Program-made: the position numbers
Shown: positions 33,001 to 45,000 of the stretch, piece by piece
Layout: each line of letters begins with the position of its first letter
Position numbering within the stretch: the first letter of the stretch is position 1
From: Bdellovibrionota bacterium
GTDB lineage: Bacteria; Bdellovibrionota_C; UBA2361; JBGSMV01
NCBI GenBank assembly: GCA_044356455.1
Contig: JBIKWF010000024.1
Coordinates: forward strand, 1 to 46,164
Direction: 5' to 3'
Length of the DNA: 46,164 nucleotides

Positions 33001-36000
33001 CTGATTGAAATCTTAGATAGCATTGTCCCTCCCGGCCTCACTATTATTACTAAAATGGGCGCGGACATTGAGAGTTCTGACCTTGCGGTCGCGCTTCGCC
33101 CGAGTGATGCACTTCAACTCTTTGGACATATCCTACTGCACGCCACTCGTACCTCCGGAATAGACGGAGAAGTCACGCTCTCCGCCCAACTCGACACCAG
33201 CCCTCCTTCTCAAGCAGTGGTTCTGCTTTGCACCGCAGAACAAGGCCCAAGCCGTGCCTTAATTTCTAGAGATTTAATTGGAGAGGCTACCAATTTAGGA
33301 GTGAGCCCCACAGCAGATAAAAACGGCAAGCTACTCGTCGGGCTCGACGCAGCCCAGGTCCTTGCGGACCGCTACCATGTGCGCATTGAGTTCAAGACTA
33401 CGGCGACGAGTTTTAAGGTGCGGCTACGGCTGCCTCTCTGTTAGATGTGCGCGTGACTTGGGGACAACCACTAAGAACACAGAGACCACTAAGAAAAATT
33501 TTGGGGAAACCTCTGAAAAGCACACTTCTTTGTACCTCCGTGCCCTCTGTGGTGATTCCCTTGATAAATTTTTCACCACAGAGGACGCAGAGGTACACCG
33601 AGGTGTACTAAGAATAACGGCTCTTCAGAGGTTCCGTAGGTCTGACCGCGGTGCGCTCATCGTGGAGGCGGCAGCCCCGTGAAAAGGATTACTGTTTATT
33701 GAGAATCCACCAGACTACCATGATAATGAGCGCCATCACCATGATGAGCCCAATACCAAGCCAGATTTTGTCCTCGAGAGAAGACATGGCGTCTTCTTCT
33801 GGCACACCAATCATGTTTCGACTCCCTGGATGAATATCGTATCCAGAGATGCGTGAATTTATCGCGGACGAATCCAAGGTCACGGTTTGTGCTACACCAA
33901 TTTTACCAAATGGCAGCCGTTCAGGAGCTCGCGGCATTGCAGAAACCGTTGCGCCTTCGTCTGTACCGGCCTCGGCTGCCCAGGGAAAGGATCTCGTTGC
34001 GTCTCTCGCCGCAGGAGGCGCGGCCTCTTCCTGAGGGAGGTCTACTTCCGTGCCTTCCACAAGCTCAGCGTGATACTCCATCGTGGGCTTGCCCTTCGAG
34101 CTTGACGCCACGTGGGAAGCAGATTGAGACGCAGATGGGACAGGACGAACTTCAAGGGCGCGGCGATTCGCGCCCACAATCATGTCGTTAAAAATGACGC
34201 GGTAATGATCCACACTAAGCTCATCTCGGTCAGCGAGGACCGAAGTGCGGGTCAAAGGCTCGCCGTTAAGCGCAACGGCCACTTCTCCAGAGATCGTGAA
34301 AGCGGCCACACTTTCGCCCCGACGCTCAATCACTAAAGACGGAAGATCGTGAATATCAACATCAAGCCGTAAATCGGCCTTCGCTCCGCCAATCACGAGC
34401 GCACGACCGAACTCGGGGACGGGATACTCTTGAAGAAAGCGGCCGCGCGAAAATACGATCAAAGACCGAATGCCCGTGGGGGCGCCTACGCGCGTGTCAT
34501 GGCTATCTGCGAATGCAAGCTCCAAGGCGATATCGCCAAGCTGCAAATAATCGCCCGGTTTTACAAGTTTCCATTCCTGGGGGGTAATTTTGCGCCCGTT
34601 GAGCCACGATCCGTTGGTGCTATCTTGATCAAGGAAAAACCACTGCTGACCAATACCGCGGAGTACTCCGTGGTGGCGCGAAACGGCATGGCTATTAAGC
34701 AACACGCCGCCCTCAGGCGGATCTCTGCCCAGCACTACTTCCTCAGAGTCAACGTGACCCAGGTCTATTCTGCCCTCTTGGGCCAGATGAATGAGCTGAA
34801 GCGGTCGTGCCATCTCGTGTTAAACTCCCCGTACTACTTAAAGAGCAATACAGGCATGCAATTTTAAAACCACGTCTCGCCGGAGGGGCTTTAGGCGGGG
34901 TTCTTGTATCCCCGCAAAAGCCAATAATACTTGGCTGTTACACCCTATTCTCCGCACAGATAGAATGTCGGAACAAGTACAGGAATTATTAAGCTCGGCG
35001 TGAAAGCTTTTTATCAAGCTCGAGAAGAACGAAGGCTACCGCTTCAAAAAGTGGGCCGGGAATCTGCTCATCAATCTCAAGGGCGCTCAAAGATTTCGCC
35101 AGACCTGGATTTTCAATAACGGGAACTCCATAGCGCTTGGCAAGTTTTACGACTTCGTCAGCGCGAAGCTGCTCAGCCTTAAGGCTCACGGCAGGCGCTT
35201 CCATTGATTTGGTGTCGTACTCAAGACCAACAGCACGACGATAACGCGGGCGCCGAGAGCTCATAGCTTCTCCTTCTCAACGGCCTTTTCCAGAGAAGAG
35301 AGCGGGAATGGAAGTACACTTGCAGCGGACTTAGAAGCCCTACTCTTTTCCGCTTCAGAGCTATCAATATGAGCAGCCAACCTGAGAGCACCGCCAGAAG
35401 TTGCAACCTTTTCCAACGCCTGCCGAATATGCTCCGTCATCGACCAAATCCGAAGCGGCTTTTCAAACAAGCGCACCCGCGGCGTAGGCTCGGAAAGGCT
35501 ATTTTTGAGACGCTCTTCCCAGGTACTCATATTAGCCACGTAGGCTAAAACGCGCGCACCTGAGTGTTTCTTAAGCACCTCCGCCACGAGCTCTTCTGCG
35601 TGCACCCCTACTCTATCAAGATCCATGACAAGCACTGCGGGTTCAGGCTGCATCTGACCAACGAGCTGCACCACGCGGTCGCGAGATACGGGAACCGAAA
35701 CGATGGTGCCAGGGGCTTCAACTGAAGCCCGCAGAGAAAATGCGATGGCGTGATCGATCTCAAACAGAACCACATTCGAAATCACCCGAACACGAGATTC
35801 AGGATCTCCCTGCGACAGCTCTGCTGTTTTTTGAACCACTGCCGGCAAATAAAGCGAAAAGGTAGTTCCCCGCCCAAGCTGACTCCTCGCGGTAATTACG
35901 CCATCGTGCTGTTTCATGATGGAATAGGCAGAAGAAAGTCCTAGCCCCGAGCCTCCAAAACCAAGGCCTGTTCGCGTATCGGCGTTTTTCGTCGTAAAGA

Positions 36001-42000: not shown

Positions 42001-45000
42001 CCCATAAGGTGCTGCTCTGCGAGAGACTCAGGCGCAAGCGAAACCACCGTGCCCTTGTCGGGGAGGTGCGTAAGCTGAACGTTCAATTTGCGACCCTCAG
42101 AGGAAGAGAAGGAAAAAGAGACCCCTGCCCCACGCGAGTCGCTCCAACTCTCAAGCCCGGAGAGACGCTCCGCAAAGTCGCCTGCCTTAACCGAGCTTCC
42201 GTACCCTGCGCTACGCAGCTGCTCTTGAAGGGTGTTCTCTGGTTGAGGCTGCTGCCTTGAAGACTGGCCCGAGGAGTCTTGCGTCCCACCTTCGCCTTGA
42301 CGACTCAAGTGAACTAGGCCAGTTGCTACATTACTTGGATCAATTTCACGCTGCTTCACAGACTCTGGTTGCGTCGCCGAATCCGCCTGCTCAAGCCCCT
42401 GCTTCTCCTTGGTAGCTGCCACCGCTTCAGCACTCGAACGTGTATCCTTTTCAAGGTCCTCCCGGGTAGAAACCGCGGAAAGCTTGACCGTTCCTTCAAC
42501 TTTCTCTTTACCGCTTCGAGCGAGACGAACCGCACCCATAAGCTCATTCACTGCCTGTTCCTGAGAAACTTCCCCAGCCTGGGCCTTTCGTCTCACCAAG
42601 GTAGCGAGAGCTTCCCCAAGCTTGTCAAAGCGCACCTTCCCGGTGGCGAGCTCGGCGAGCGCCTTGCCTTGCGTCTCAGTGAGAACCGCAAGCTTACCCT
42701 GCGCTTGAGTGAGTTCTTTCTTCTCCTGCTGCACACGCTTTAATCCTTCCCGAAGGGCAAGCGACTGTAGCTTGGGGTCCTTTAGTTCACGTGAGTGTGC
42801 GAGGAACTTCTCGCACACGCTCTTAAAGCTGGTTTCTACGCGTTCAGTTTTTGCACGCGATTCCTGGACTTCTCGTCCGATCGCGCTGGCTCTTGTCTCT
42901 AGCCCCCGGAGCTGTATACGCTCGACATCGCGCCGAATCTCAACCCTCTCGAAATCTGAAATTTCCATTTGCCGCTCTCGTTATGGTTGGCTTTGCAGTT
43001 TACGAAGAGTTCCAAGCAAGCTCTCTGCGACCTTCGATACGAGCTCTACTCGCATGTTAAATTGACCGGCTTTAATTTGATAAAGCAGCAGCTCTCGTGC
43101 ATCAAAGGCGCCGCCCCCAAGAGCTTTCTGCTGAAGGGCGCCTAGTTCTTTGTGGAGATTGTTCGAGAAGGGGTCTTTGGAGCTTGGAGATGCGGCAATC
43201 TTCTCGAACAGCTCCCTAAAGCCCTGAGCAGAACCTGAATGTGGCGTGGTAGGCTTTGGGCCAGGGGCCTGTATTCCCTGTGACCCTGAAAAGGATTGAG
43301 ACACGGCAAGTGGTTGAATTGATGAGGTCATGAGCGCCCCTTTTCCCTGTGTTGAGCTTCTTCGCGCTACCCTCATCGGAAATTTGAGCCAAAAGTTTCC
43401 TGTGGGAGAGAAAATATTTCATTTTCTCTAATGAGAGTTTTTGCGAAGCTACGGGAATACATGCTGTCGCATGAGGAGCCTTCAAAGAAAATCGAAAGTC
43501 TCGAACGCCGACAGGGCGCTCAGTTCAGTGTGGTTTTCAATAGCATTCGAGAGCTGACAACTGCAAAACTGAGGGATCTCATTCAGGTGCCACCCAAAAA
43601 TCGCTCGTCCGTTCTCGGCAGGAATTGTTTGTTAGCCGGCCTAAGCAACTTTCCCGTAAAATTAGCGATTAAGTTATAGAATATATGCCTTGAATTTTTA
43701 AAAATGGTGCGTGTGAAAGCTGAATTAACTGCCGAAATTGCTGGGATGATTTTCCTTGTTCGAGGTAGACGCGTCATGCTTGACTCCGATCTCGCGCGTC
43801 TTTACGGGGTAGGGACAAACCAAGTCAATCGTGCGGTGCTCCGGAATCCTGAAAGATTTCCCGAAGACTTCTATTTTCAATTGAGTTATCAAGAAGTTGC
43901 AAACTTGAAGTGCCAAATTGGCACTTCAAGTTCTTGGGGTGGCAGGCGGCGATCCTTGCCATTTGCGTTTACTGAACAGGGCGTAGCGATGCTTTCGAGC
44001 GTACTACGTAGCAGGGAAGCTGCGACCATCAATGTTCAAGTGATGCGAGCCTTTGTTTCAATGCGTGAAGCTCTGTCGACACACCTAGAGCTATCGGGGA
44101 AATTGGAACAGCTTGAGTATCGACTCGGCAAGCATGATGACGAAATTGCAGCGCTGTTTGAGGCAATCAAGCAACTCATGCTTCCCATAAGTCACAAAAA
44201 ACGCCGCATAGGCTTCTAAAGCAAATGATGGCTATCGACAAAAATGATCCGGGCGTACTCGCCTCGGCTCGCGTTCAATCATTCGGTACTAAACTCAAGA
44301 AGGTGCATCTCATTCAAAGAAATTACCTCTATCGCACGCCGCCCAGAATCTGCACAACTCAGTTGTTATATTCCGCGAATAGCCTCAGAATTTACTCAAT
44401 TGAATATATGCTTCCAGCGCTTTGTTTAGCGCGAATACGTGATGAAACACGAAATTGCGGTCCGACTGCTCAAAGGAGTCTGCGAATTTTGCCTGTCCCG
44501 CTACTTCGAACCCAATAAGTTCAGCGCCGCGACCGTGTAGCTTGCAGGTAGTTGTCGCGTCACCTACCGCAATTTCGCAGCTCCACGTCGACGACGCGGC
44601 ATTTTCAATCGTGAAGGTCAGAGGACGGTCAACTAACGCACCAAACGGAACTCCTGGCCCGTCCCGACGGGGCGCAAACTCACGTAGGTTAATTTCAAAC
44701 GATTGGGCATGCGGCGCAACGAACTGTTTCTCTAGAAACTTACGAATCTGGTTCAGGCGGTCAAACTCGTCGGCATGTGCATACAATAGAATCGCCGTCT
44801 TACCCCCTGCTAAAGGATCTCGTTTCATCTCGGGAAAAAAACGGCGAGAAGCGAGTTCCTGCACATCACGCGGATGAAATTCAGCTTTAGGATCCATAGC
44901 ATTGGTTATGGTCGAGCCAGATTCCAACGTAGCCTAGGGATACAGCAGCTAAGCCTTAAGGGGTTCTCCCAAGGGGGGTAGTACAACTCTTCAATTTCAC

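Follow-up and report, generated by a model that had tools for sequence, protein, structure and literature searches.

It has long been asked why FlhB/SctU has to cleave itself, and the locus analysed here raises the matter in genetic form: what becomes of the secretion switch when the two products of its cleavage are written as separate genes? The window, by which we mean the whole stretch of 46,164 nucleotides of contig JBIKWF010000024.1 from a Bdellovibrionota bacterium (GCA_044356455.1), carries its SctU genes on the minus strand. The reading we favour, with a probability of roughly 70%, is that they encode a pre-cleaved, two-chain switch of a needle-less non-flagellar T3SS, which arose by a lineage-inherited fission at the autocleavage site.

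An SctU encoded by two genes

The initial annotation of this DNA had placed SctU in two genes on either side of a kinase gene. Its open reading frames all lie where it had put them, on the minus strand, and PF01312 is indeed divided between a 272-residue N half (38746..39564; model positions 2–256) and a 91-residue C half (34989..35264; positions 262–332), with overlapping stop and start codons at both junctions with the 1,162-residue kinase gene (35261..38749). These overlaps of four bases each place the genes in shifted frames, as a frameshift, a misassembly or a mobile kinase gene that could be excised to rejoin SctU might do. At the DNA level, such an interruption is refuted. Both junctions are spanned, without a single difference from the window, by independent contigs of other public runs (X2 record 10, 37522–38977; X2 record 9, 34239–37545), and none of them contains a joint that skips the kinase gene, so the split is not an assembly or frameshift artefact. 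Rejoining the halves would also not restore NPTH, since their tail lengths vary and neither half carries the motif. With the split conserved across orders, we regard the chance of an artefact as negligible. At 40362..40477, in the intergenic space that divides sctS from sctT, a depth spike and loose ends mark a repeat present in many copies (BLAST finds 154 matches across the genome, 91 of which reach at least 90 bases); it does not belong to the system.

The gene order is conserved in relatives, as had been proposed. Among 30 kinase loci examined with 1.5-kb flanks, the N half lies upstream in 27 and the C half downstream in 28; four of the five misses are at or near contig ends, and the fifth locus has its C half 3.4 kb further on. 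A short N half is present in 102 genomes; for 65 of them the listing also has a C half on the contig of the N half, always downstream (65/65). Three pairs are separated by fewer than 100 bases and a fourth overlaps, and split pairs are still present in the genomes G022, G044 and G024, which have no FlhB match. The SctU split is thus real and extends across this whole lineage of uncultured predator-like bacteria. A genome scan with a single N half as query returned no matches. Within the locus, a promoter scan stayed at chance level, and terminator-like sites exceeded those in shuffled sequence (24 versus 12.8) but were positioned inside genes.

The N half has four hydrophobic windows, matching the four membrane helices of FlhB/SctU, followed by a linker helix. 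It ends just past the beta strand that precedes NPTH (residues 255–261, at about 38782–38802 on the minus strand), with Glu262 at the position of the catalytic Asn and then a free tail of 10 residues. None of 65 distinct N-half ends contains NP[TS]H, whereas the pattern of the preceding strand is kept in 63, and the stop codon follows after 1–20 further variable residues. The best 150 protein representatives of the N half are all short (205–290 residues). In phylogenetic reconstruction, on a tree that carried long-branch warnings, the N halves fall on the non-flagellar side, and three divergent Myxococcota proteins are placed among the split sequences.

The C half corresponds to the cleaved CC chain. 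Its profile finds the cleaved FlhB chain 3b1s_B as the best PDB match (profile 9–84 on chain 4–80) and also matches EscU CC chains. PTH is absent from all split C halves (n=47) and present in 26 of 27 whole proteins; similarly, the Arg of the LARAL helix is found in 9/47 split C halves versus 25/27 whole proteins. The residues of the early-substrate pocket, A286, P287, A341 and L344 (PMC13344023), are retained in 32, 46, 45 and 32 of the 47 split C halves, respectively. The ends of two conserved genes therefore match the two products of NPTH cleavage while the cleavage residues are lost: evolution kept both pieces of SctU and dropped the cutting. Because a lineage without the catalytic motif retains both products, the strand and the pocket, we take the two-piece state itself to be what selection maintains.

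A similar mechanism could have a different history, in which SctU lost its C domain by truncation and an FlhX/YlqH-type protein was taken into the operon as a substitute. Stand-alone C-domain proteins form a known family (TIGR00789) that includes HP1575 (FlhX) of H. pylori and YlqH of B. subtilis, and one is present in this lineage. PTH is missing from split C halves and lone copies alike, and the two also have in common a gap of one residue at the Tyr322 column. An AU test leaves the union of the split C halves with lone FlhX-like proteins unrejected (p-AU 0.26), which means that the data do not prove fission against recruitment. The best trees nevertheless separate the two, with the split C halves in a group of their own (92/99). 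The C half of the window scores 61 bits to the SctU model versus 54 to TIGR00789, which is under the cut-off of 117 for that family, while the genome's own lone copy (on C176) shows the opposite (83 bits to TIGR00789 versus 48 to SctU). The N-then-C gene order in 65 of 65 pairs also fits fission, and we judge recruitment to be unlikely. Loss of the Tyr322 column had been considered as a mark of the switched state and was set aside, as the gap also occurs in the lone copies and the column is variable among whole proteins.

The hybrid histidine kinase between the halves

The initial annotation went further and proposed that SctU had been cut at its autocleavage point and placed under a dedicated sensor. 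The cut site, its conservation and the selected look of both halves stand; sensor control is not supported. The kinase itself comprises a GAF-like domain, an acidic linker, PAS, GAF and GAF domains, a DHp domain (His745), an ATPase domain and a degenerate receiver. It is probably soluble, its only hydrophobic window (residue 672) falling inside a GAF domain. It had been reported to have no recognised HisKA; instead, His745 is invariant in 27 of 27 orthologues, 24 of which match Pfam HisKA and 26 PAS_3. The H-box His and the N, G1, F and G2 boxes are invariant columns of the alignment, as in histidine kinases, and the DHp-CA core matches CckA and VirA models with E values down to 1e-58, under their cut-offs. 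The receiver-like tail has an Asp in most sequences, is without the acidic pocket and gives a Pfam receiver match in one of the 27. In one genome scan, the full-length matches listed came only from this lineage.

As a conserved member of the operon, the kinase might gate the switch directly, by binding or modifying a SctU half so that switching follows a signal sensed by its GAF and PAS domains. It is matched in 50 of 61 sampled genomes, lies between the halves with its H-box kept in all 13 loci from other orders, and often overlaps both neighbouring genes. However, in four genomes of two families the halves are directly adjacent and still separate genes with no kinase between them, and the split therefore does not need the kinase. 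In a third family (f7) the kinase is degenerate, being shortened with an altered H-box in the three genomes read, and in three genomes (G040, G121 and G009) unrelated genes part it from the C half. Histidine kinases pass phosphate to receiver aspartates, and neither SctU half has a receiver domain. We consider direct gating quite unlikely, and suggest that the kinase would be a co-transcribed regulator of the system that acts via a phosphorelay of its own.

Downstream of the C half lies a gene for an FHA-domain protein with a C-terminal membrane anchor (33689..34813, minus strand). An FHA gene follows the C half in 12 of the 13 loci from other orders, but in one large family many loci have none at that place. 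Convergent with this gene is a 477-residue open reading frame on the plus strand (32011..33444) with a weak PAS_4 match and receiver-like, PAS and degenerate-kinase-like regions read by eye; a homologue neighbours the FHA gene in 6 of the 33 loci of relatives.

Other probable switch components and the wider secretion system

Upstream of the split SctU, profile matches identify SctT (39574..40386), SctS (40484..40744; 40813 is its start in the open reading frame list) and SctR (40755..41462), all on the minus strand, as are the genes that precede them. A FliO-like protein (41456..41950; Pfam FliO, E 2.2e-9) had been counted as part of the operon, which holds for the window but not for the lineage as a rule, since no FliO-labelled frame was found in the 33 loci of relatives.

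Two frames farther upstream, the second of which had been left unlabelled, probably encode other parts of the switch: a rod protein resembling SctI and a T3S4 protein of the FliK/SctP type. These assignments draw on weak Pfam and fold-search signals. The first, of about 116 residues (42981..43331, with an upstream ATG at 43376 in the open reading frame list), is the first gene of the operon in relatives and a probable early substrate. Its Atlas look-alikes are needle-clan and HrpB2 clusters (0.91–0.93), with a recognition score under the tool's threshold, and Pfam T3SS_basalb_I is matched by 10 of 20 aligned orthologues (best E 2.5e-5) but not by the window copy; a PDB search with its profile gave nothing below E 0.35.

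The second, of 355 residues (41901..42968), consists of an N-terminal coiled coil that may be SctO/FliJ-like, a low-complexity linker and a C-terminal T3S4-like domain. Its top Atlas match is Flg_hook/HpaP (0.94), PscP and SPAN clusters also being found, and 6 of 18 orthologues match Pfam Flg_hook weakly (best E 4.8e-4). Fold searches with a model of the C-terminal domain (pLDDT 82.8) gave no significant match: in Foldseek the PscP SS domain 5cuk led in both probability (0.95) and TM-score (0.49) but with E 0.19, and in VIA it reached a Z of only 5.0, tied with unrelated folds. The frame at this position in other orders has only about 135–205 residues, and the T3S4 domain may therefore be confined to this order.

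Elsewhere in the genome, SctV, SctN and SctJ, like the SctR, SctS, SctT and SctU above, score higher to Sct than to flagellar models, all of them below or near the equivalog cut-offs. A separate flagellar gene set lies on C110 and C16, and SctJ is present, which marks the system as a non-flagellar T3SS. No match to the needle subunit (PF09392) was found in this 93% complete genome, in a search whose control genomes held no real positive control, and two secretins of about 990 residues lie on other contigs. We infer that the split gate is part of a dispersed, needle-less T3SS. By elimination only, its likely partner is the C7 cluster (sigma factor, sctJ, sctQ, a small frame, sctV and TPR) rather than the Tad-linked SctV, and the sctL and sctN genes on C112 probably belong with it, also by elimination. 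In 30 of 30 loci tadC and sctV are linked, but synteny points from this SctV to the second (C95-type) gate, which it probably serves. An assignment of the Tad-linked SctV to the split gate, together with the sctJ and sctQ on C24, was dropped, as C24-type genes continue directly into the C95-type gate in five of the six loci read. Patterns of co-occurrence do not help to match gates with SctV copies, because four of five genomes tested have both non-flagellar SctV types. One genome (G042) has neither the split gate nor the C7-type SctV, and no export ATPase at all; these absences carry little weight, given that the genome is 82% complete and lacks even the flagellar ATPase.

The second gate present in the same genomes has a membrane-only SctU without the linker strand, which shows that gates of this lineage need not include a C domain. 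Combined with the missing needle match and the observation that FlhB without its CC domain still exports late substrates (PMC13344023), this could mean that a needle-less system needs no switch, the N half being a gate subunit only and the C half a free chaperone-like or regulatory protein. The N half, however, still has its linker helix and docking strand, features lost from the SctU of the second gate, the halves remain linked even where the kinase is gone, and rod-like and ruler-like genes stand in the same operon. We think a relic of this kind improbable.

A proposed two-chain switch and its known counterparts

In the two-chain switch that we favour, the N half would wrap the SctRST gate, and the C half, made as a chain of its own, would dock on the last beta strand of the N half, so that the switch would be 'born cleaved'. 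The complex would bind early substrates such as SctI until the T3S4 protein acted on or removed the C half, changing the class of substrate exported. The Salmonella switch is a ruler-driven, irreversible ejection of the cleaved FlhB domain; FlhB without this domain is blocked in early export, and removal of Fluke as well locks the apparatus into late export (PMC13344023). The split SctU fits this 2026 ejection model, and one operon offers natural parts for it: a free C half, a ruler-like domain and a rod-like substrate. A separate C-half gene may also let the cell replace the removable piece. Since the C domain has a gene of its own, a gate that lost it could take up a newly made C half and so revert to early mode, with the membrane part left in place. 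We entertain, tentatively, such a resettable switch, in which the co-encoded T3S4 protein would eject the C half, the phosphorelay of the kinase could set the amount of C half made, and the system would alternate between classes of substrate, for instance with each new cell contact.

Our literature search found no description of a natural split SctU, which annotation tables in paper supplements could mention; in public records the halves are named as ordinary FlhB or SctU, and the split thus goes unnoticed. The canonical proteins (YscU, EscU, SpaS, HrcU; PF01312, TIGR01404) share the four-helix membrane part, the linker and strand, the CC fold, the early-substrate pocket and the place after sctRST. 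They differ in that here two genes are used, usually with a kinase gene between them, NPTH is absent and cleavage-associated residues are not conserved. Stand-alone FlhB C-domain proteins (TIGR00789, such as H. pylori HP1575) are likewise CC-only proteins of about 90 residues without PTH, but they occur beside a whole FlhB, whereas here the cognate SctU itself is cut at the cleavage site within the same operon, and this genome's separate TIGR00789-like gene falls in another tree group.

The kinase resembles CckA-type hybrid histidine kinases in its DHp-CA core and differs from them in its soluble GAF-PAS-GAF-GAF input and degenerate receiver. The system as a whole resembles the needle-less T3SS* of Myxococcales (Myxo NF-T3SS; PMC3459982, PMC12075869), with a non-flagellar apparatus, SctJ, an inner rod, no needle match, two gate sets per genome, FHA genes and a Tad system in the genome. 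Unlike the situation here, the non-flagellar SctU of Myxococcota is whole and carries NPTH in the four loci of that phylum that were read; the genes of our system are, moreover, dispersed, and its Tad-linked SctV probably serves the other gate. The closest experimental parallels come from HrcU, where a C domain supplied in trans works and fragments without NPTH lose HpaC and HrpB2 binding (PMC3040844), so that loss of NPTH could cost ruler and rod binding; the same paper also cites a trans-acting homologue from H. pylori. The engineered split HrcU and the FlhB without its cleaved domain are laboratory constructs, whereas the split described here is natural.

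A SctU encoded by two genes

The export-gate operon lies on the minus strand and reads FliO-like, sctR, sctS, sctT, a 272-aa PF01312 protein (N half, 38746-39564), a 1162-aa hybrid histidine kinase (35261-38749), a 91-aa PF01312 protein (C half, 34989-35264) and an FHA gene. The two PF01312 proteins cover positions 2-256 and 262-332 of the family model, the kinase gene overlaps the gene on either side by 4 bases, and both junctions are spanned by contigs from other public runs; none of those contigs has a kinase-skipping joint. The initial annotation had read SctU as two genes with a kinase gene between them, and this evidence bears it out. 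Elsewhere the genome carries an intact flagellar FlhB, an SctU on contig C95 that consists of the membrane part alone, and a solitary C-domain protein on contig C176.

Family-model searches assigned no family to the two ORFs at the upstream end of the operon. The first looks like an inner rod SctI. The C-terminal domain of the 355-aa protein was modelled at pLDDT 82.8; its most probable Foldseek match, which is not significant, is the PscP switch domain, 6 of 18 orthologues weakly match the FliK family, and Atlas hits likewise suggest FliK/HpaP/PscP. The positional counterpart of this ORF in other orders spans only ~135-205 aa. Individually weak, these signals together with gene position suggest rod, ruler and switch in one operon.

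A 116-base repeat with ~150 matches in the genome occurs at 6060-6175, 40362-40477 and 45866-45979; the second of these copies falls within the operon, separating the sctS and sctT genes. A plus-strand ORF (32011-33444) with receiver-like, PAS and degenerate kinase-like regions converges on the operon. In 6 of 33 loci it adjoins the FHA gene, and it may be a pseudokinase that partners the hybrid kinase. The remaining neighbours are ordinary: LPS core genes at 26757-31729 (two heptosyltransferases, a Kdo kinase, an epimerase and a PfkB kinase) and an ORF6N-domain gene at 43704-44219.

Residues at the cut and origin of the halves

In whole proteins a strand runs into Asn-Pro-Thr-His. The N half retains this strand at residues 255-261, then has Glu262 where Asn would stand and ends in a tail of 10 residues. 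We compared 65 distinct, complete N-half ends: the strand pattern is retained in 63 and takes a closely similar form in the other two, tails measure 1-20 residues, and NP[TS]H occurs in none. PTH is absent from 47 split C halves and present in 26 of 27 whole proteins; the LARAL-helix Arg has become rare, at 9/47 against 25/27. Solved structures of cleavage products match the C-half profile, the best match being FlhB chain 3b1s_B, and the four early-substrate pocket residues named in PMC13344023 are kept in 32, 46, 45 and 32 of the 47 split C halves. Because the strand and pocket are kept, NPTH and PTH are lost and the C half resembles cleavage products, we conclude that the gene ends correspond to the two autocleavage products, as had been proposed from the position of the cut. 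The residues that perform the cut have eroded, and those for docking and binding are preserved.

In the best tree, the split C halves cluster together (92/99) and separately from the C176-type family of lone C domains, and the best-scoring model is SctU for the C half here and TIGR00789 for the lone copy; a constrained tree uniting the two kinds of C domain was not rejected (p-AU 0.26). N halves group with non-flagellar SctU and not with FlhB (branch 91/96, with long-branch warnings and 17 rows left out). We favour an origin by fission of a non-flagellar SctU, which is not proven. The lone TIGR00789-like protein (C176:12516-12779) represents its own family in ~48 genomes of the lineage; it had no match in the large family f8.

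The kinase and the range of the split

The kinase comprises GAF, PAS and two further GAF domains; its His745 is invariant, its ATPase boxes are intact and its receiver is degenerate. Kinase matches occur in 50 of 61 sampled genomes. It had been proposed as a dedicated sensor governing the switch, a view that the relatives do not sustain. In four genomes (G006, G026, G037, G016) the halves are adjacent and still two genes, the kinase version of family f7 is reduced to 551-579 aa with an altered H-box, and other genes intervene between kinase and C half, on the opposite strand in G040 and G121 and as an unrelated 455-aa gene in G009. The split therefore does not depend on the kinase, and C-half expression need not be coupled to it. 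Direct control of the switch by the kinase is unlikely, gene position being the one thing in its favour.

The host phylum is represented in the search set by 124 genomes of one class. From the 150 listed rows of 262, we picked 102 genomes whose N-half frame is short; the C half is listed on the same contig in 65, always downstream, at distances within 100 bases (3), of 1.7-1.9 kb (4), 2.5-4.0 kb (55) or 5.6-6.8 kb (3), and lies on another contig or is unlisted in the remaining 37. The 13 loci examined in other orders all run N half, kinase, C half, in agreement with the earlier claim for relatives. The best 150 matches among 1.84 billion protein representatives are 205-290 aa long.

No split was found in the two phyla searched outside the lineage (301 and 201 genomes). 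In the phylum around a Myxococcales genome 165 of 301 genomes have PF01312 matches, and the 150 among those listed are whole proteins; 27 genomes whose matches were weak or multiple were rechecked, which yielded a few partial divergent proteins and no pair cut at the same site. Among the frames listed for the second, Bacteriovoracaceae-centred phylum (201 genomes), the shortest measures 306 aa and every other one 348 aa or more. Three Myxococcota-phylum loci (L217-L219) encode very divergent, unsplit SctU-like proteins of 310-330 aa without NPTH. Within the lineage, one N half is apparently in two pieces (G012 C2:194661-195311), and in family f7 (L077-L079) the pair, whose kinase is shortened, no longer sits with sctRST.

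The secretion machine and comparison with known systems

The genome holds a flagellum and two non-flagellar sets, with SctV on C184 and C7, SctJ and SctQ on C24 and C7, gates on C127 and C95, and a single SctL/SctN pair on C112; no needle subunit was matched in the genome. The C24 genes continue into a C95-type gate in five of six loci read, so by elimination the split gate pairs with SctJ, SctQ and SctV of the C7 cluster; a predatory role of the split system is therefore not established. That cluster (C7:16422-21970) runs from a sigma-70-family gene through sctJ, sctQ, a 108-aa ORF and SctV (618 aa, with an internal deletion) to a TPR lipoprotein-like gene, an order shared by three other genomes; the leading sigma factor hints at secretion-coupled transcription. 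The second gate (C95:2372-5363 with C24:2681-8131; also L259-L262 and L269) has a membrane-only SctU in which linker and strand are missing; an 85-aa ORF and a TPR protein come next, and better assemblies place this gate in a single operon with FHA-FHA-sctJ-sctQ. Elsewhere, SctR is fused to a FliO-like domain in a non-flagellar gate (L180:5508-6689), and extra export-ATPase copies occur in other orders (G070, G071, G074, G075; three matches each in the last three), one in G071 lying 22 kb from the split gate.

According to 10.1101/686782, FlhB/SctU wraps the gate and its cleavage is required for switching. The HrcU C domain functions in trans, and because of this its authors hold that what counts is the outcome of cleavage and not the act (PMC3040844). 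According to PMC13344023, the cleaved FlhB domain holds the early mode and is needed for early export, and FliK ejects it irreversibly. We consider SctU here most likely (probability about 70%) a born-cleaved two-chain switch, whose separately encoded halves would associate and together perform substrate switching. A bolder extension, which we regard as doubtful, is that a separate C-half gene lets the ejected part be replaced.

In the literature covered, which takes in few subscription papers, we found no description of a naturally occurring SctU that stops at the cleavage site while the same operon supplies its C half; the accessible part of PMC3459982 describes the Myxo systems without mention of a split. 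Stand-alone C domains and engineered splits are already known. On C184 (C184:9606-16471 and loci L229-L258) a non-flagellar SctV belongs to a cpaB-tadA-tadB-tadC-sctV-kinase-like operon and sits directly behind tadC, flanked also by the kinase-like gene, in 30 of 30 loci. This linkage recalls the Kil/needle-less T3SS* pair of Myxococcus (PMC12075869, PMC12428579); according to a review, the two co-occur only in Cystobacterineae.
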